64,000 nucleotides of DNA from Candidatus Saccharimonadales bacterium (GTDB lineage Bacteria; Patescibacteriota; Saccharimonadia; Saccharimonadales; UBA10212): assembly GCA_035758565.1 (NCBI GenBank), contig DASTXL010000001.1:139242-203241 (forward strand), in the 5' to 3' direction. Shown here in pieces: positions 2,678-63,940 of the stretch. Position 1 is the first letter of the stretch. Each line of letters opens with the position of its first letter. Under the pieces are notes generated by a model that had not been told where the DNA came from, did not search any database, and was given only the letters and a program-made list of their open reading frames with translations. The position numbers and the translations under genes were made by a program.

Positions 2678-4093
2678 ATGCCAAATTCTTGGCCAAAAAT
2701 AGCGGATATAGTCGCGTCTGTGCAAAAAGGCGAAACTAAAGCTATCGATCTAATTGAAAAATCACTAACTGCCATTAAAGAAAACGAAGAGTATAAAGCC
2801 ATAATCAGTACACTAGAAGACCGCGCACGCGAACGCGCGCACGAGATAGATCATATGGTAGCCAGCGGCAAAAACCCAGGCAAACTGGCAGGTGTACCAT
2901 TTATTGCCAAGGATAATTTCTTGGTATTCGGCGGTAAAACTACAGCTGCAAGTAATATTCTTAAACCCTTTGAAGCACCATACCAGGCTACGGCGATCAA
3001 TAAACTAGAGGCCGAAGGCGCCATTTGTGTGGCTAAAGCCAACCTGGACGCTTTTGCTCACGGCAGTTCTACCGAAAACAGTGATTTCTTTACCACTTTG
3101 AATCCGCACGATAAAACCCGTGTGCCGGGCGGCAGTAGTGGCGGTTCGGCGGCGGCGGTTGTGCTCGGTATGGCGCCTTTTGCGCTCGGCACCGATACTG
3201 GCGGCTCCATTCGCTTGCCAGCCAGCTTTACCGGCAGCGTTGGCTATAAACCGACCTATGGTTTAGTCAGCCGTAGCGGTGTGATTGCCATGGCTAGCAG
3301 CACAGATGTAATCGGGCCAATTGGGAGTAACGTAGATGACGTGGCGTTGGTGCTTGATGTGATGGCTGGCAAAGACGAGCTAGATAGCACTACGATTGAT
3401 CGCCAAGATACTTATGTCGCCGGGCCAGCTAGTTTCAAGGGCAAAAAAGTTGGCGTTGTCAAAGAGTATTTTGAAGGCCTAGAAGGCGATGTTAAGCGCG
3501 TTGTAGACCAGGCTATTGAAAAGCTTCGTTCCGCAGGCGTCGAGATCAGTGAGATTAGCTTGCCAAGTTTGCCGTTGGCGCTCGCGGTTTATTATATTAT
3601 TTGTCCGGCTGAAGTTTCGTCTAATTTGGCCCGCTACGACGGCCAGCGCTACGGCTATTTTGCCGACAAAGCTAGAGATTTAAACGAAAGTTACGAGCTG
3701 GCGCGCGAAGAGGGTTTTGGCACGGAAGCAAAGCGTCGTATTATGATTGGCGCTTATGTGTTGAGCTCTGGCTATTACGACGCCTATTATAAGAAAGCGC
3801 AAACGGTGCGGACAAAAATTATCAAAGAAATGGATGAGGCGTTCGCGAAATTTGATTTTTTGGTTGGGCCGACAGCACCTATGACTGCTTTTAAAATTGG
3901 CGAAAAAACCGCTGACCCATTGCAAATGTACTTAACTGATATCATGACCGTAGCTGCCAATATTACCGGCAACCCAGCTATCAGCGTGCCGGCCGGCAAG
4001 GTTGATGGTTTGCCGGTTGGTCTGCAGATGATAGCCGACCGCCGTCATGATGCAGAATTATTATCAGCGGCAAAAGGGTTCGAGGAGCTATAG
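2678..4093 (+). CDS. gatA: Asp/Glu-tRNA amidotransferase subunit A
   Basis: Amidase signature GGSSGGSAAAV..GTDTGGSIRLPA. Confidence 0.95.
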   Translation: MPNSWPKIADIVASVQKGETKAIDLIEKSLTAIKENEEYKAIISTLEDRARERAHEIDHMVASGKNPGKLAGVPFIAKDNFLVFGGKTTAASNILKPFEAPYQATAINKLEAEGAICVAKANLDAFAHGSSTENSDFFTTLNPHDKTRVPGGSSGGSAAAVVLGMAPFALGTDTGGSIRLPASFTGSVGYKPTYGLVSRSGVIAMASSTDVIGPIGSNVDDVALVLDVMAGKDELDSTTIDRQDTYVAGPASFKGKKVGVVKEYFEGLEGDVKRVVDQAIEKLRSAGVEISEISLPSLPLALAVYYIICPAEVSSNLARYDGQRYGYFADKARDLNESYELAREEGFGTEAKRRIMIGAYVLSSGYYDAYYKKAQTVRTKIIKEMDEAFAKFDFLVGPTAPMTAFKIGEKTADPLQMYLTDIMTVAANITGNPAISVPAGKVDGLPVGLQMIADRRHDAELLSAAKGFEEL

Positions 4094-4501
4094 ATGACTG
4101 TTATTTTTCTGCTTGGCATAATCGTTTTTGGTGTTTTGGTCCTGATGTTAGTAGCCACGATTGGAAAGCGCCGCTTCGGCCCGTCCGGAGAAAAGTATTT
4201 CCAGGAAAAATGGGTTGAACTTTTAACTCGCGTCAGAACGCCGGAAGGCATGGTATTAGCCGTAATTGACGCGGATAAATTGTTAGACGAAGCCTTACGC
4301 AAAAAACATTACAAAGGCAAAACCACTGGGGAGCGGCTTGTTGCAGCTCAGCGCGACATTAAAGACAACGACTCTGTTTGGTACGCGCATAAATTGCGCA
4401 ATCGCTTGGTACATGAACCGGACGTTAAGCTCAGAAAAAATGAAGCTCAAAATGCATTGGCTGGTTTCCGTGCCTGCCTTAAAGATCTGGGAGTACTTTA
4501 G
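4094..4501 (+). CDS. Membrane-anchored protein with RNxxxH (HEPN-like) motif, unknown function
   Basis: N-terminal TM helix (VIFLLGIIVFGVLVLMLVATI). C-terminal AHKLRNRLVHE matches Rx4H. Abuts the gatA stop and the gatB start with no gaps. Confidence 0.6.
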   Translation: MTVIFLLGIIVFGVLVLMLVATIGKRRFGPSGEKYFQEKWVELLTRVRTPEGMVLAVIDADKLLDEALRKKHYKGKTTGERLVAAQRDIKDNDSVWYAHKLRNRLVHEPDVKLRKNEAQNALAGFRACLKDLGVL

Positions 4502-5929
4502 ATGAGTGATTACTTGCCGACAATCGGAATCGAAACGCACGTTCAGCTAAAGACCAAAACCAAGATGTTTTCGGCTGTGGGCAATGATGCTCGAGACGCG
4601 GCGCCAAATACTTTGATTAGCCACATTGATGTCGGTATGCCTGGCGCTTTGCCGGTTTTGAACGAAAAAGCTTTGGAGCTTGCTTGCCGAGCCGCTTTTG
4701 CACTAAATACTACTCCGCAGAAATTCTCTAAGTTTGAACGCAAGCATTATTTTTATCCGGATTTGCCCAAAGGCTATCAAATTACTCAGTATGAAAACCC
4801 AATTATTATCGGCGGCCATGTAGAATTGCCGGACGGCAAAAAGATCGGCATCACCAGGGCGCACCTGGAAGAAGATGCCGGCAAAAACACTCACCCGGCC
4901 AGTGCTGATTATAGCTTGGTGGATTTGAACCGCGCTGGTACGCCGCTGCTAGAAATTGTCAGCGAGCCGGACATTCATAGTGCCGCTGACGCTAAAGCTT
5001 ACGTACGCGAACTTTATTTACTTATGAAATATGCAGACGTTTCTGATTGCGACCTGTACCTCGGCCACATGCGTTTTGACGTGAATGTCAGCGTTAGCAA
5101 AGATCCCAGCAAACCCGGAATCCGCGCGGAAGTTAAAAACCTGAATAGTTTCCGTAGTGTAGAGGCGGCGATTGAGTACGAAATTAAAAGGCAGACTGAA
5201 CTTTTAGAAAATGGCGAAAAGGTTGTGCAGGAAACCCGCGGCTGGGACGAAGATAAGCAAGTTACAACCAGCCAGCGCAGCAAAGAAGAAGCCGAAGATT
5301 ATCGCTACATGCCCGAACCGGACATCCCCCCAACCGAACTTAGCGATGAATTCATTGAAAATATCAGAAAAGACATGCCCGATCTGCCAAGCTATTACAG
5401 AAAAACGCTGAGCGATATTGGAATTGATAAGAAAGCAACTGAAGATATTGTTGCTATTCCCGACGTAGCTAGAAATGTCGACCTTGTATATCGCTACGAT
5501 GGCAAGTTGAATGCAAAATTCGGCAGACGGATAGCGTTCTTGCTTTTACGCCCACAACCCGAAGAGCCGGACAATACTGACGCAAAAGTCGACATAAGCA
5601 TCAAGAACCTTGTTAAATTATGCCAGATGGCAGAAGACGGACTATTAAGCTCTACGGCCACTAAGGAAATTTTCGATGAGATGCTTATCTCTAAAAATGA
5701 TCCTGAGCTAATTGCAAAAGAAAAGAAACTAATTCAGGTTTCGGATGAAGGGGCGATTGAAGAAATTGTTAAACAAGTCATTGCCGAAAACGAAAAAGCC
5801 GCCAATGATGTTAAGAATGGCGAAATGAAAGCTATCAGCTTTTTGGTCGGCCAGGTCATGGCAAAATCCAAAGGCCAAGCCAATCCGGGTTTAGCTCAGG
5901 CAATAATCAAAAAACAACTGGGGGTATAA
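4502..5929 (+). CDS. gatB: Asp/Glu-tRNA amidotransferase subunit B
   Basis: IGIETHVQL..RKHYFYPDLPKGYQITQ..HLEEDAGK motifs and a C-terminal GatB/YqeY tail. Confidence 0.95.
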   Translation: MSDYLPTIGIETHVQLKTKTKMFSAVGNDARDAAPNTLISHIDVGMPGALPVLNEKALELACRAAFALNTTPQKFSKFERKHYFYPDLPKGYQITQYENPIIIGGHVELPDGKKIGITRAHLEEDAGKNTHPASADYSLVDLNRAGTPLLEIVSEPDIHSAADAKAYVRELYLLMKYADVSDCDLYLGHMRFDVNVSVSKDPSKPGIRAEVKNLNSFRSVEAAIEYEIKRQTELLENGEKVVQETRGWDEDKQVTTSQRSKEEAEDYRYMPEPDIPPTELSDEFIENIRKDMPDLPSYYRKTLSDIGIDKKATEDIVAIPDVARNVDLVYRYDGKLNAKFGRRIAFLLLRPQPEEPDNTDAKVDISIKNLVKLCQMAEDGLLSSTATKEIFDEMLISKNDPELIAKEKKLIQVSDEGAIEEIVKQVIAENEKAANDVKNGEMKAISFLVGQVMAKSKGQANPGLAQAIIKKQLGV

Positions 5930-11950: not shown

Positions 11951-12847
11951 CTATTTGATAAACCCGGCGGTTTGGTTCAGCAGGAACACCAGACAAGCAA
12001 TTATTAGCAGGCAAAAATCAGTTGCCGGATGGCGCAAAATATAACGCTCGCCCTGAGCAGCCGCGGTAGCAAAATAGCGGCGGTGCTTTTCGATAAATAT
12101 ACCCAAAGCAGCCAATCCCCCAAAGAGCAATATTACCGGCAGCCACGGCGACAAAGAACTGTTAAAGGCGGCAGCGACACGGGTAGTAGAGGCTCCCAGA
12201 GTCTGTCCTGTAAAATTAGTCTTTGGATTAACGAACACGCTGGCCGGTTGGGCGTAAAAAGCCACGACTATTGTCATAGGTCCGCCACCGGCAGCTGTGT
12301 AATTTGGATTATTAGCGTAGCCAAAGCCAACCTGGCTGTAGTTTTTATCAAGAATGTTTTCGCGGTGGTGAGGGCTGGCCATCCAAGCGTTCACTACAGC
12401 ATCATCGTCGTTAAAGCCGGCAGCTAAGTTTTCGCCCATGCTTTGGTAAACATAGCCGGTGGCCGTCACGAAACTCCAAGGAGCGACTCCTTGCGGTGTG
12501 TTATGACTCCAGTAATCGCGCTTAGCCATATCGTCGGCTTTGGCCTGAGCGGCCTTGGTAAGTTCGTCGTTAATTTTAAGGTCCGACTCACCGGCTTTCT
12601 CGCGCTGAAGATTAGTATCCTTTAATAATTGATCTGAGTTTTTGCTAGTCTGGTAGCCCAGAACCTTGCCGGTTAAATGATGCAACGGCACGGTTTGGAT
12701 AGCCAAGCTGAGCAGCAGGGCGGTGGCAATAAAAACAGGAATAAACGGCCAATAGACTTTTTCGAAAGCTTTGTGGTCTATGCCCTTGGGCTTGGGCGTA
12801 GCGGTTTTTCGAGTGTCGTATTTAGGATGAGTTTTGATTTTGGCCAT
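11951..12847 (-). CDS. CAP/SCP (YkwD-like) domain protein with N- and C-terminal TM segments
   Basis: DYWSHNTPQG..GENLAAGF..AVVNAWMASPHHRENIL..VGFGYA are CAP-domain motifs. Confidence 0.8.
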   Translation of the reverse strand: MAKIKTHPKYDTRKTATPKPKGIDHKAFEKVYWPFIPVFIATALLLSLAIQTVPLHHLTGKVLGYQTSKNSDQLLKDTNLQREKAGESDLKINDELTKAAQAKADDMAKRDYWSHNTPQGVAPWSFVTATGYVYQSMGENLAAGFNDDDAVVNAWMASPHHRENILDKNYSQVGFGYANNPNYTAAGGGPMTIVVAFYAQPASVFVNPKTNFTGQTLGASTTRVAAAFNSSLSPWLPVILLFGGLAALGIFIEKHRRYFATAAAQGERYILRHPATDFCLLIIACLVFLLNQTAGFIK

Positions 12848-12920
12848 CTTAGCTAGATTTTAAAATATTAAACTGTTTATGGCAATCGATCCCAAAACTT
12901 GCAAATTACTTTGTAGGTTT

Positions 12921-13580
12921 TGGGATCGAGGAGACGCCGTAGAGGCGTCTCCGTGCTCGATCCTTCGTTCATGCTCAGGCGCCGTAGTCGGCGATCGTCG
13001 CCTTGGCGTCGGCCATCGCGGTGTACTGCTCACCCGGCTTGTTCGTGTTGCAGAACCAGCGCGGGCGTTCCTCTTGGCCCTTCAGCCACCCCTCCCGCGT
13101 CTCGCGGGTGAGATAGTTGAACGTGACGGCGGCGTGACCAGCTTCCATTGCGTCCTGTAGCTCCGACTGGCCGCTGGCACCCGCGATGGTGCCATCGACC
13201 TTGGTCGAGAAGCCGTAGGTGAAGTCGCCATCGCCTGACTGGGTGAGGTCGACGTAGACGCCGAAGCCTGCCGGCTGTCCGTGGTCGCGGTGGTAGACCG
13301 CCTTGGCGATCGCATTCGGGACAAACCGCTCGCCCTCTGGGCCGATGGCGATCGTCGCCAGCAGCGTGTCGCTGCTGGGTTACCAGAGCGGCGCCATCGG
13401 GTTCAGGAACGCCAGGCCGAGGCTGTCGCGGCTGTACTTGCGGTCGGCGAAGAGCCTCTCCACGTGCTCGGCGCGCAGGACGGAGATGCGATCGACGATT
13501 GCGATCAGCATCTCGTTGGGCACCGTGTGGCTCCATGGATTCTGGAACACACGGACTTGCCGTGCCAACATGTGCACTCT
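12921..13580. other. GC-rich island C
   Basis: 38/60 G+C at 13021-13080 against 25/60 at 13621-13680 (hand counts). Confidence 0.7.
12975..13577 (-). pseudogene. GC-rich gene of unknown function interrupted by an in-frame TAA
   Basis: A single frame with GC3-rich codons runs from the ATG at 13577 (SD AAGGAG 7 nt upstream) to the TGA at 12975-12977. It contains a TAA at 13380-13382 (..NPMAPLW*PSSDTLLATIAIGPEGERF..). Confidence 0.6.
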
Positions 13581-13620
13581 CCTTGTCGAAGGATCGAAAC
13601 GTGCATATTTTACAATAAAA

Positions 13621-14115
13621 TTAATTAAATCTCAAGTGATACAGCGCTATGGCTGCGGCGTTGGCTACATTAAAGGATTCTTTTTTGCCAAACATTGGAA
13701 TCTCTATATGGAGTTTAACTTTCTTAAGCAGATTTTTATCTACACCTTCCACTTCGCTGCCGATTAACAAGGCTATTTTCTCGGGTGGCTGATACTCATT
13801 GAGTTTAATGGAGGTATTGGATTGTTCTAATGCAGCGACATCAAATCCTTCGGCATATAAATCGGCCAAAACGTCATTAATATCTTCGCAGTGCTGCCAG
13901 TCCACACTTTCTTCGGCGCCTAAAGCAGTTTTGTTTATTTGCTTGGATATTCTGGCAGCCAAATGCGGCAAGCGTGGGTCGTCGGCTATTTTAGGAAACG
14001 GCGTATAACCTGTTAAGTAAACTTTATTTACGCCCAGGCCGTCGGCTGTTCTTAGCAGGCTGCCCACATTATGAGTGGAGCGGATATCGTTGACTATCAA
14101 AACAATTTCTCTCAT
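13621..14115 (-). CDS. SpoU/TrmH-family RNA 2'-O-methyltransferase
   Basis: IRSTHNVGSLLRTADGLGV..LLIGSEVEGV..IPMFGKKESFNVANAAAIALY motifs. Confidence 0.85.
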   Translation of the reverse strand: MREIVLIVNDIRSTHNVGSLLRTADGLGVNKVYLTGYTPFPKIADDPRLPHLAARISKQINKTALGAEESVDWQHCEDINDVLADLYAEGFDVAALEQSNTSIKLNEYQPPEKIALLIGSEVEGVDKNLLKKVKLHIEIPMFGKKESFNVANAAAIALYHLRFN

Positions 14116-17166: not shown

Positions 17167-17760
17167 AACGTCGTGACTTCCGGAGAGCCACGTCTACCCG
17201 GTAGGGTCTAATCTCCGGCGGGTTTGGGAGCCTGATCACCATCAAGGGAGCCAAAACCTGGCCATAACGGAAGATTCCCACTGGCAAGACTTCGGTCTAC
17301 CAGATCTCCGTTCCTGTTAAAGTCGCGAGCTCAGCGCGCAAACATCAGGGTCCTTCGGGATGAGATGCGCCTTCGGGCACTGTCTGAGACGGGTCTTGAG
17401 GAAGACTCGCATTCGCTAGTGCGATATCGAGGGCATCGGCGCGGTGAACCGCAGTCGATGGTCGCACACAGTTCCCGCTGTCCTCTAGTCGTTTTACGGC
17501 TAGGCAGGAACTATTCCTCCTACAAAGCCGGGTTCCACCGAGTGGCGTCGCCTGAGGGCGGCCCGGACGTCCAAGACGTCACTCAACGTGTTCGGGTCGG
17601 TCGGCCTCCAAAGCTGATCGCACAAAAAAGCCGGGGCAAAGGTCCCTCCGGACTCCGCAAGAGAGATCCGGGAAAACCTAGGAGAGGATTGTAGCGACCC
17701 GACGCTGCGAACCTACCTCCCCCCGCTTGGTCTTCGGACCGAGCGGGGCTCTTTTCTTTT
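17167..17760 (+). ncRNA. Unclassified large structured RNA (about 590 nt)
   Basis: Bounded by the promoter above and the terminator at 17721-17760. GC-rich relative to its flanks. Many local stems and four C(UUCG)G tetraloops (17290-17295, 17353-17358, 17371-17376, 17732-17737), plus the stem CATCG..GCGG-tgaa-CCGC..CGATG (17434-17460). The only ORF is an Arg-rich shadow. Confidence 0.6.
17721..17760 (+). terminator. Rho-independent terminator
   Basis: CCCCGCTTGGTC-ttcg-GACCGAGCGGGG (12 bp including one G-U pair) followed by CTCTTTTCTTTT. Confidence 0.8.
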
Positions 17761-63175: not shown

Positions 63176-63379
63176 AGTTTTAATTTATCTATTAAAAAAT
63201 TAGCAACTATCCCGTGAGCGTGGTCACAGCTTAATGGTTTTAAGCTTTTAAAATAATAGGTTGCTCTGGAGATAGTTCAGAGCAAAGGTAGCCGAGCTTT
63301 ATCAACCGAAAGGAGGATTTTGCGGCTACAACACAAGCTATCGTTTCTCAACCATCTACCCTGTAAGGAGGGTATAGAC

Positions 63380-63940
63380 GTGAGTGAAGGAAGACTGGCC
63401 GGGATCCTGGGCGTTGCCTGCCGCGATCTGCGTGAGGGTCGCAACCTGCACGCCCTGCAGCTGTTCGGTTCGCTGGTGGGGGTGGAGTTCACCTACCAGC
63501 GGGACGCCCGACTGGGCGAGGCAACGGCCTTGGCTCGCATGGGTCGCTTCTCGGAGGCCGAGGACAAGCTCCAGCAGATCGTGAACGACTACTCGGAGCG
63601 GACGGTCTTCAAGGCCGACTCGCTCCGGGCACTGGCCGAGGTGCGGATCGTTCTGGGCAACCTCGAGGGGATCGACGACATCCTCGAGGAGGCCGCCCAG
63701 ATCTACCAGATCCACAGCTTCACCCGGCCCTGCGGTGCGATCGTGCATCTGCAGGCCCTGGTGGCCATGCGCCGCGGTGACATGGACGAAGCCGTGGAGA
63801 AGATCCGGTGGGCCACGACGCTCACCGAGATCAAGATCCCCGACGTCGTGCCGGCGGGCTTCGGCAGCATCGAGCCCCTGCACGACGGAACCGTGTCCGA
63901 GTCGACCGAGCTCATGACGCTGGTGACCAGCGCTGGCTAG
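63380..63940 (+). CDS. GC-rich helical-repeat (TPR-like) protein, island D
   Basis: GTG start 8 nt after AAGGAGG. GC3-rich codons. ALARMGRFSEAEDKLQQIV-type repeats. All overlapping ORFs look like shadows. Confidence 0.55.
   Translation: MSEGRLAGILGVACRDLREGRNLHALQLFGSLVGVEFTYQRDARLGEATALARMGRFSEAEDKLQQIVNDYSERTVFKADSLRALAEVRIVLGNLEGIDDILEEAAQIYQIHSFTRPCGAIVHLQALVAMRRGDMDEAVEKIRWATTLTEIKIPDVVPAGFGSIEPLHDGTVSESTELMTLVTSAG

Follow-up and report, generated by a model that had tools for sequence, protein, structure and literature searches.

Genomic islands acquired by horizontal gene transfer are reported to be common in Patescibacteria (PMC12455944). We analyzed a 64,000-nucleotide stretch of a Candidatus Saccharimonadales genome (contig DASTXL010000001.1 of assembly GCA_035758565.1; the whole stretch is hereafter called the window), in which a GC-rich gene on the minus strand is interrupted by an in-frame TAA codon. 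The most likely reading, with a probability of roughly 80%, is that horizontal transfer brought in a single-gene unit of about 750 bp and that its open reading frame (ORF) recently turned into a pseudogene. Like a young pseudogene in an acquired island, the locus combines a compositional island, an empty site in a relative, and a patchy distribution with one inactivating substitution in a constrained ORF and a substitution bias directed toward AT. Unlike an ordinary acquired island, it is a single gene with its own conserved regulatory flanks that recurs in many contexts, and only housekeeping genes are found within 10 kb on either side, with no integrase, transposase, or tRNA target.

Base pairing between the 5' and 3' untranslated regions (UTRs) of bacterial mRNAs has been described for icaR of Staphylococcus aureus (PMC3868564) and hbs of Bacillus subtilis (PMC5737220). 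In the same way, a box right after the stop codon of the gene described here is complementary to a leader box beside the Shine-Dalgarno (SD) sequence, with compensatory changes across homologues. In icaR, the 3' UTR bears the anti-SD element and blocks the SD sequence (PMC3868564), whereas here the anti-SD element is in the 5' leader, and the 3' box, similar to an SD decoy, would set the SD sequence free. Unlike both mRNAs, the unit has four boxes of alternating orientation, and their pairing is predicted from sequence. The analysis supports an ordinary case of a foreign GC-rich gene that entered a conserved block of housekeeping genes and was freshly inactivated by nonsense mutation. What is new is the conserved architecture from promoter to hairpins, including the long-range complementarity between the 5' and 3' ends; hints that related units behave as an array and at a hotspot are also of interest.

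The disrupted gene and its premature stop codon

The minus strand from 13577 to 12975 reads as a 201-codon frame, interrupted once by TAA at 13382 to 13380 and closed by TGA at 12977 to 12975. This frame had been recognized in the initial annotation, as had the AAGGAG SD sequence and the upstream -10 hexamer, both of which are present (Table 1). The SD sequence at 13584 to 13579 is 7 nt before an ATG at 13571. Because homologues open with 'ML...', this ATG is the true start, and the TAA is therefore codon 64 of 199; its location had been given correctly, and its numbering as codon 66 of 201 is replaced. The frame is real coding sequence, since the alignment to the top homologue (79% identity over 98% of the length; E value, 2.4e-100) covers both sides of the stop. 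The G+C content at third codon positions (GC3) is 0.866 for the gene, and the codon bias is, as had been noted, unchanged past the stop (0.89 before it and 0.86 after it).

A search of 5.8 billion proteins found 35 homologue clusters. Two of these are fragments, and the rest are single proteins of 196 to 231 amino acids that align straight across the stop position (the best two at 79% and 78% identity; E value, 2e-100). A profile search of 1.84 billion representatives gave 101 family members, nearly all of about 200 amino acids. The homologues are thus not naturally two separate genes, the outcome that the initial annotation had named as speaking against its reading. One homologue is annotated in Candidatus Saccharibacteria (HY857_00495), and VLA88_01700 is another example of the family. 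Pattern scans gave at least two loci in species-representative genomes, both in Saccharimonadales or Saccharibacteria, and at least one in metagenomes; estimates of distribution rest on the protein searches. The public annotation of the window copy already splits the gene into two 'hypothetical proteins', which in the public protein collection are exactly the two ORF fragments of the window: P0097 (HEU5004623.1; VFT49_00870) is the N-terminal one, and P0098 is the C-terminal 57 amino acids.

In the alignment, Gln predominates in the column of the stop, and the aligned position is a sense codon (CAG, CAA, AAG, CGC, or another) in all 13 other loci. The closest copies have CAG, the ancestral codon that a search for intact homologues was expected to reveal, and TAA therefore needs two GC-to-AT transitions. 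The TAA is the only defect of the gene, which is otherwise undamaged. All family-invariant columns (I, G, N, K, A, H, G, G, D, G-D-F, G ...) are kept in the window copy. The ratio of nonsynonymous to synonymous substitution rates (dN/dS) is 0.2 to 0.24 against L001 and L002, compared with 0.18 for the intact L001-L002 pair, and is about 0.2 both before and after the stop. Past the TAA, the first in-frame ATG, GTG, or TTG is at 13148, 78 codons on (a restart at codon 144), so residues 65 to 143, with nearly all of the invariant positions, cannot be made. Translation can now yield only the 63-amino-acid N-terminal fragment, with no reinitiation of the conserved core. From the kept invariant residues, the dN/dS values, and the absent restart, we conclude that one knockout took place, and very recently.

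If the TAA were an error of assembly or consensus, or an allele of a minority strain, the gene would be intact and functional in most cells. The source sequence is a metagenome-assembled genome, and a stop as the sole defect in a gene that keeps its invariant residues and a normal dN/dS is what an error or allele would look like; from a CAA intermediate, one C-to-T change would suffice. We consider this explanation unlikely because substitution errors are rare in consensus assemblies, two positions differ from the CAG of the closest homologues, and at least six other family members are broken in independent assemblies (L012, L011, P0096, P0109, P0117, and P0112, the last of which is L024). L012 has one in-frame stop, L011 has a +1 insertion right after codon 67, and P0096, P0109, and P0117 are frameshifted. 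Because stops and frameshifts recur in this way, loss of function is frequent in the family.

Three of the seven lesions fall within codons 62 to 68, namely, the window stop, the L011 insertion (at about 380 to 420), and the P0096 frameshift (near codon 63). This 'APxWQPSSE' segment has short CAG/AGC repeats inside. The remaining lesions are at about codons 100, 105, 124, and 136. By a rough estimate, three of seven lesions would fall within 5 codons by chance with a p of about 0.06, and the cluster may reflect either a mutational hotspot or chance. As a signal for recoding, the clustering was rejected as suggestive only, at this p value and with lesions of different kinds.

It is extremely improbable that the stop is programmed, with read-through, recoding, or a deliberately split gene yielding a functional product. 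L011 and P0096 are broken within a few codons of the window stop, and the base after the TAA is C, which is a weak termination context. However, the stop is found only in the window copy, the three nearby lesions differ in kind, and the others are scattered. TAA is also the most used genuine stop in the window, ending 18 of its 41 long ORFs (TAG ends 15 and TGA 8), a point that the initial annotation had made in judging recoding unlikely, and that judgment holds. No suppressor tRNA is among the tRNAs of the window, the only one being Leu(tag), and there is no in-frame restart before codon 144.

A 168-amino-acid ORF at 13030 to 13536 on the minus strand and ORFs of 115 to 154 amino acids on the plus strand overlap the disrupted gene. 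Such alternative-frame ORFs over a GC-rich island are typical by-products of GC-rich DNA and not annotatable genes.

Full-length alignment and the invariant residues place the window protein in an unnamed Saccharimonadales family of about 200 amino acids. The protein (about 198 amino acids, with no signal peptide) is predicted to be a cytoplasmic alpha/beta protein. AlphaFold2, run with a 33-sequence alignment, gave a confident model (mean predicted local distance difference test score, 91; predicted template modeling score, 0.85), an alpha/beta sandwich whose elements follow one another as beta-alpha-beta-beta-alpha-beta-beta-alpha-alpha. Residues N, K, H, several D, S, and E do not vary in the family, a further H, R, and Q hardly vary, and these positions cluster in 'NAIAKAVxHRDHG', 'DGDF', and 'ELQDAxEAGHA'. 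Because invariant Asn, Lys, His, Asp, Ser, and Glu cluster, the protein might, very tentatively, be a small soluble enzyme or ligand-binding protein. A Foldseek search of the predicted model against the PDB and BFVD gave nothing better than an E value of 0.17, the weak top matches being generic alpha/beta sandwiches (the LuxR ligand domain, MglB, and profilin). Nothing was found in a profile search of PDB sequences with the family, and Pfam, NCBIfam, PHROGs, and PADLOC gave no family match. Two candidate families were rejected. Pfam DUF4454 reached 19.8 bits, below its gathering threshold of 25 bits, and only 1 of 33 homologues scored at all (E value, 0.076). For GlcG/HbpS/DUF336, considered from a likeness of the 'DGxIAGASG..QD' segment, the hhalign probability was 0.3%, and no DUF336 structure was among the Foldseek matches in the PDB.

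Composition and probable foreign origin of the unit

Four independent lines of evidence, namely, composition, an empty site, rarity, and directional change, support the conclusion that the gene is foreign. Its GC content is 65.3% in a window of 49% GC, and its GC3 is about 5 standard deviations above that of the 41 long ORFs (0.52 +/- 0.066). The GC profile has a sharp island at about 12940 to 13590, between trmH (13621 to 14115) and a gene for a CAP-domain protein (11951 to 12847). The genome that provides the empty site (L025; GCA_025927415.1) carries a TrmH homologue (P0157) with 67% identity to that of the window and shares with the window a block of M1 peptidase, RNase HII, L19, PilB, TrmH, CAP, and DnaE. 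Its TrmH-CAP spacer is 38 bp, compared with 773 bp in the window, all of which is taken by the unit. Because the site is empty in this syntenic genome, the gene is an insertion. The empty site is too diverged for nucleotide alignment to the window junctions, which leaves the exact ends and any target-site duplication undefined. The family is also rare, with 35 clusters compared with at least 4890 for the neighboring TrmH (E value, <1e-20).

On the terminal branches of the three closest copies, GC-to-AT changes outnumber AT-to-GC changes by 29:8 (the window branch), 33:5, and 22:8, and at third positions by 15:3, 20:1, and 11:4. Because the excess is found on every terminal branch, the GC richness is eroding and not at equilibrium. 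AT-biased mutation pressure would thus be lowering the GC content of all copies, and two GC-to-AT transitions would have made the TAA. In the comparison of homologue GC content, which had been proposed earlier, every copy examined is a GC island, with a gene of 59 to 66% GC and a GC3 of 0.70 to 0.90 between flanks of 42 to 58% GC, and the lowest GC3 values are found in the lowest-GC hosts.

One alternative is that the gene is native and vertically inherited, with a high GC3 kept by selection on mRNA structure or codon choice; the stop would still be pseudogenizing it. The host-type AT-rich promoter and conserved UTRs of all copies, the persistence of a GC3 of 0.7 to 0.9 across copies with synonymous divergence (dS) of up to about 1, and the presence of the gene at one and the same locus in four related genomes would fit this explanation. 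It is nevertheless very unlikely, given the empty site in L025, the very patchy distribution, and the 3- to 7-fold excess of GC-to-AT changes on terminal branches, which indicates a nonequilibrium composition. Furthermore, at the shared locus the flanks are 77 to 90% identical but the gene mostly 52 to 63%, and L002 has an extra unit there.

The family belongs chiefly to Saccharimonadales; it also has distant relatives in high-GC actinomycetes, most of which are broken. For example, P0112 (L024, 4001 to 4700) is a frameshifted distant member on a 1.8-Mb contig of 67% GC, and the aldo-keto reductase beside it is 84 to 88% identical to proteins of Streptomyces and other actinomycetes. From these sequences, an actinomycete source for the unit is plausible. 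Cultured Saccharibacteria live on actinobacterial hosts. Degradation also marks the high-GC distant members L024, P0094, and P0109: the damage is a frameshift in one, two frameshifts in another, and in the third a fusion to the N terminus of the neighboring aldo-keto reductase. A match on a viral contig of 67% GC (L014) covers 41 residues with the DGDF(T)YGF motif alone and was treated as chance. A transposon or insertion sequence was rejected as an identity for the unit, given a protein with no match in Pfam, NCBIfam, PHROGs, or PADLOC; the divergence of the relative with the empty site left no target duplication definable.

Conserved flanks and predicted pairing of the transcript ends

In 11 loci, representing at least eight gene neighborhoods, the gene is accompanied by conserved noncoding flanks. 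The features of the window copy are listed in Table 1.

Table 1. Positions of the disrupted gene and its flanking features in the window
Feature	Position	Strand	Remarks
Promoter-like site	13607..13635	-	TTGAGA (13635-13630)-17-TAAAAT (13612-13607); 10 of 12 matches
Box A (TCGATCCTTCG)	13587..13597	-	Start of 5' leader; putative anti-Shine-Dalgarno element
Shine-Dalgarno AAGGAG	13579..13584	-	Predicted pairing with UCCUU of box A
N-terminal part of disrupted coding sequence	13383..13571	-	63 codons, ML...APLW; only product that can still be made
Premature stop TAA	13380..13382	-	Replaces Gln: CAG in five close homologues (L001, L002, L009, L012, L019), CAA in one (L016)
C-terminal part of disrupted coding sequence	12975..13379	-	134 codons plus TGA; holds nearly all family-invariant residues
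Box A' (CGAAGGATCGA)	12957..12967	-	8 nt past the stop codon; complementary to box A
Hairpin 1	12930..12952	-	GC-rich 9-bp stem, GGAGACGCC / GGCGTCTCC
Hairpin 2	12886..12929	-	Boxes A2/A2' (TCGATCCCAAAAC ... GTTTTGGGATCGA), AU-rich top
Promoter-like site of downstream CAP-domain gene	12857..12885	-	TTGCCA-17-TAAAAT; adjoins the end of the unit and marks its outer limit

The first promoter hexamer falls within the final codons of trmH. Homologues in other loci are also preceded by the motif 'TTTATTGTAnnAT', and the promoter type across loci is TTATTGTATTAT. Box A, of the form UCGAUCCUUC / TTCGATCCTTC, is conserved in the 11 loci; in the window, its 11 nt are 100% complementary to box A' after the stop codon. 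Across loci, box A' (GAAGGAUCGA, GAAGGATCGA) lies 0 to 16 nt after the stop. Hairpin 1 has a different sequence in every locus and always a perfect stem. Hairpin 2 has the boxes A2 (CGATCCCAAAG) and A2' (TTTTGGGATCG), with compensatory changes in L013 and L018, and is also supported by matches to a covariance model. The minimum free energy of the 3' region of the window is -44.6 kcal/mol (z score, -7.55), with the two hairpins formed and box A' unpaired. Rfam returned nothing for the unit or the whole window except one tRNA.

In the predicted leader fold, the UCCUU of box A covers the SD sequence in 11 of 11 loci, at -2 to -11 kcal/mol. The duplexes between box A and box A' are 8 to 13 bp, at -12 to -23 kcal/mol; RNAduplex over-extended the helices on long flanks, and these energies come from short anchored segments. 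In the anchored alignment of the 13-pair helix, 84% of cells are paired, and 5 of the 13 pairs have changes on both sides, compared with 2.5 +/- 0.9 in shuffles (4 of 500 reach 5). The covariation score was reached by 2 of 500 shuffles. The clearest compensation is in L015, with CAAUCCUCC opposite GGAGGAUUG. These results point to conserved complementarity, with compensatory changes, between box A and box A'.

The unit thus seems to have a conserved expression design, which we infer from sequence and covariation. The mRNA 5' end would be box A, which would fold onto the SD sequence and mask the ribosome-binding site. Because box A' is by far the stronger partner of box A, the two ends of a complete transcript could pair and free the SD sequence: once transcribed, box A' would pair with box A, and this pairing might also protect both ends of the mRNA. 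The two stable hairpins would follow box A'.

Several points weigh against an acquired unit with a freshly inactivated gene and a conserved expression design. An assembly error or a minority allele might account for the TAA. The helix between box A and box A' hardly varies in its core 9 bp, and the support comes mainly from one doubly compensated locus, L015, and the helix ends; for the conserved inverted boxes, a role in protein binding or recombination is equally possible. For the donor there is only a plausible candidate, an actinomycete source. Copies with a dS of about 1 still have a GC3 of 0.7 to 0.9, which fits poorly with amelioration after one old transfer and fits several transfers from a GC-rich pool or a force that slows amelioration. 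'Recent acquisition' is also only relative, since the nearest known copy is at a dS of about 0.6 and the relative with the empty site is distant. Thus, of the earlier description of the gene as recently acquired and decaying, the foreign origin and the decay are borne out by GC3, the empty site in L025, rarity, and the change from Gln to TAA, whereas recent acquisition stands only in that relative sense. The clearly recent event is the inactivation, not the acquisition.

Related units and comparison with known systems

The covariance model of the 3' element found all training copies and weaker matches beside the gene in L019 and L015, as well as two further copies in L013 (24 to 25 bits; E value, about 1e-5). 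Away from GC-rich ORFs, no copy of the element was found in the approximately 185 kb searched. In L013 (4001 to 6650; contig Ga0265338_10000311), four consecutive GC-rich ORFs lie on the same strand, a family member followed by ORFs of 153, about 215, and about 135 amino acids. The first three ORFs are each followed by a two-hairpin element ending ...CAGGGGTCGCAAGACC, which places three 3' elements in tandem. Pfam gave no match for the other three ORFs or their neighbors in the 8.6 kb of contig seen. Only the first ORF of the array has a promoter (TTGACA-17-TATCAT).

L001, L002, L007, and L012 share a locus between a 135-amino-acid gene and a 543-amino-acid gene. The flanking proteins are 77 to 90% identical, and the GC-rich gene is 52 to 63% identical in most pairs and 83% identical between L001 and L002. 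L002 has an extra GC-rich unit in front of the gene, encoding a 146-amino-acid membrane protein with a GC3 of 0.93. From these sequences, replacement at a hotspot seems likelier than descent. L007 is without the canonical 3' element and has a terminator similar to that of the extra unit in L002. In L015, and only there, an IS1595-family DDE transposase (3949 to 4833, minus strand) is directly upstream of the unit; box A2' lies about 75 nt farther downstream than elsewhere, and matching sequence changes occur in all four boxes.

One possibility for this behavior is that Saccharimonadales have small mobile gene cassettes of a kind not described before, with the GC-rich ORF as cargo. We advance this only tentatively and consider it doubtful. 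The GGATCGA/TCGATCC boxes would bound each unit, with box A at the 5' end and boxes A', A2, and A2' in the two-hairpin 3' element. Units would insert in the intergenic spacers of housekeeping genes, stack in arrays as in L013, and swap at hotspots as in L001, L002, L007, and L012. The boxes might then be recombination sites for some enzyme or an RNA switch between the 5' and 3' ends that moves together with the cargo.

The window has other GC-rich features. A second GC-rich island at 63320 to 63940 (plus strand; likely coding sequence, 63380 to 63940) has a GC3 of 0.86 and is the only other outlier among the 41 long ORFs. Its 186-amino-acid product has sub-threshold TPR matches, and an anti-SD/SD hairpin (ACCCTgtaAGGAGGGT) is present in its leader; its stop is about 60 nt from the end of the window. 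This ORF was rejected as a paralogue of the unnamed family (hhalign probability, 0.6%). Further GC-rich units (60 to 64%) lie at 700 to 1600 and 1825 to 2226 on the minus strand. One comprises three small membrane ORFs (64, 111, and 96 amino acids) arranged as an operon downstream of a host-type TTGTATAAT promoter and an SD-sequestering leader; all three ORFs have a GGAGGTGA ribosome-binding site. The other unit is a stand-alone ORF of 133 amino acids with its own terminator. With these and the other islands, the genome holds several foreign-looking GC-rich units.

A stretch of about 450 nt and about 60% GC between L19 and an SDR gene (17290 to 17760, plus strand) has no plausible ORF. It has a clear intrinsic terminator at its end, several UUCG-type loops, and a z score of -3.4 on the plus strand, and from these features it is probably a structured noncoding RNA. 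Rfam gave no match to it at gathering score (best, Atu_C7 at 24.8 bits; E value, 0.001). Its motifs GAGGAAGAC and ACAAAGCCGGG bear a faint resemblance to RNase P RNA. L025 has L19 next to RNase HII, and the window is about 2 kb longer there.

As a pseudogene the locus carries little weight, being another foreign gene that is being lost from a reduced genome. Its by-products may be of wider use. One is a rare, well-folding family of about 200 amino acids that lacks known relatives. Saccharimonadales share it, at a greater distance, with actinomycetes, to whose phylum the known hosts of cultured Saccharibacteria belong. Another is that the leader-masked SD sequence and the box past the stop could be a simple, testable form of 5'-3' UTR control in an uncultivated lineage. 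If the GC-rich units are exchangeable cassettes, they would be a route of gene flow into epibionts.

Among described repeat systems, repetitive extragenic palindromes (REPs) and bacterial interspersed mosaic elements (BIMEs) are palindromes that stabilize the upstream mRNA. The 3' element is similar in that stable hairpins stand right after ORFs and between cistrons. Unlike REPs and BIMEs, it is not dispersed, with one copy in the 64-kb window.

Integron cassettes, including those in attC clusters without an integrase (CALINs), offer the other comparison. An integron cassette proper was rejected, because neither an R'' RYYYAAC nor an R' GTTRRRY core site occurs on either strand in 11 of the 3' elements or in the L013 array, and no integrase and no adjacent intI or attI is found within 10 kb on either side of the window copy. 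Also unlike integron cassettes, the 3' element has two separate hairpins instead of one, and most units have their own promoter. Like integron cassettes and CALINs, however, these are small, mostly single-ORF units of foreign composition with a structured imperfect palindrome after each ORF. As in integron cassettes, complementarity links the beginning of the unit to that of its own 3' element, elements stand in tandem in L013, and the content of one locus varies among close relatives.

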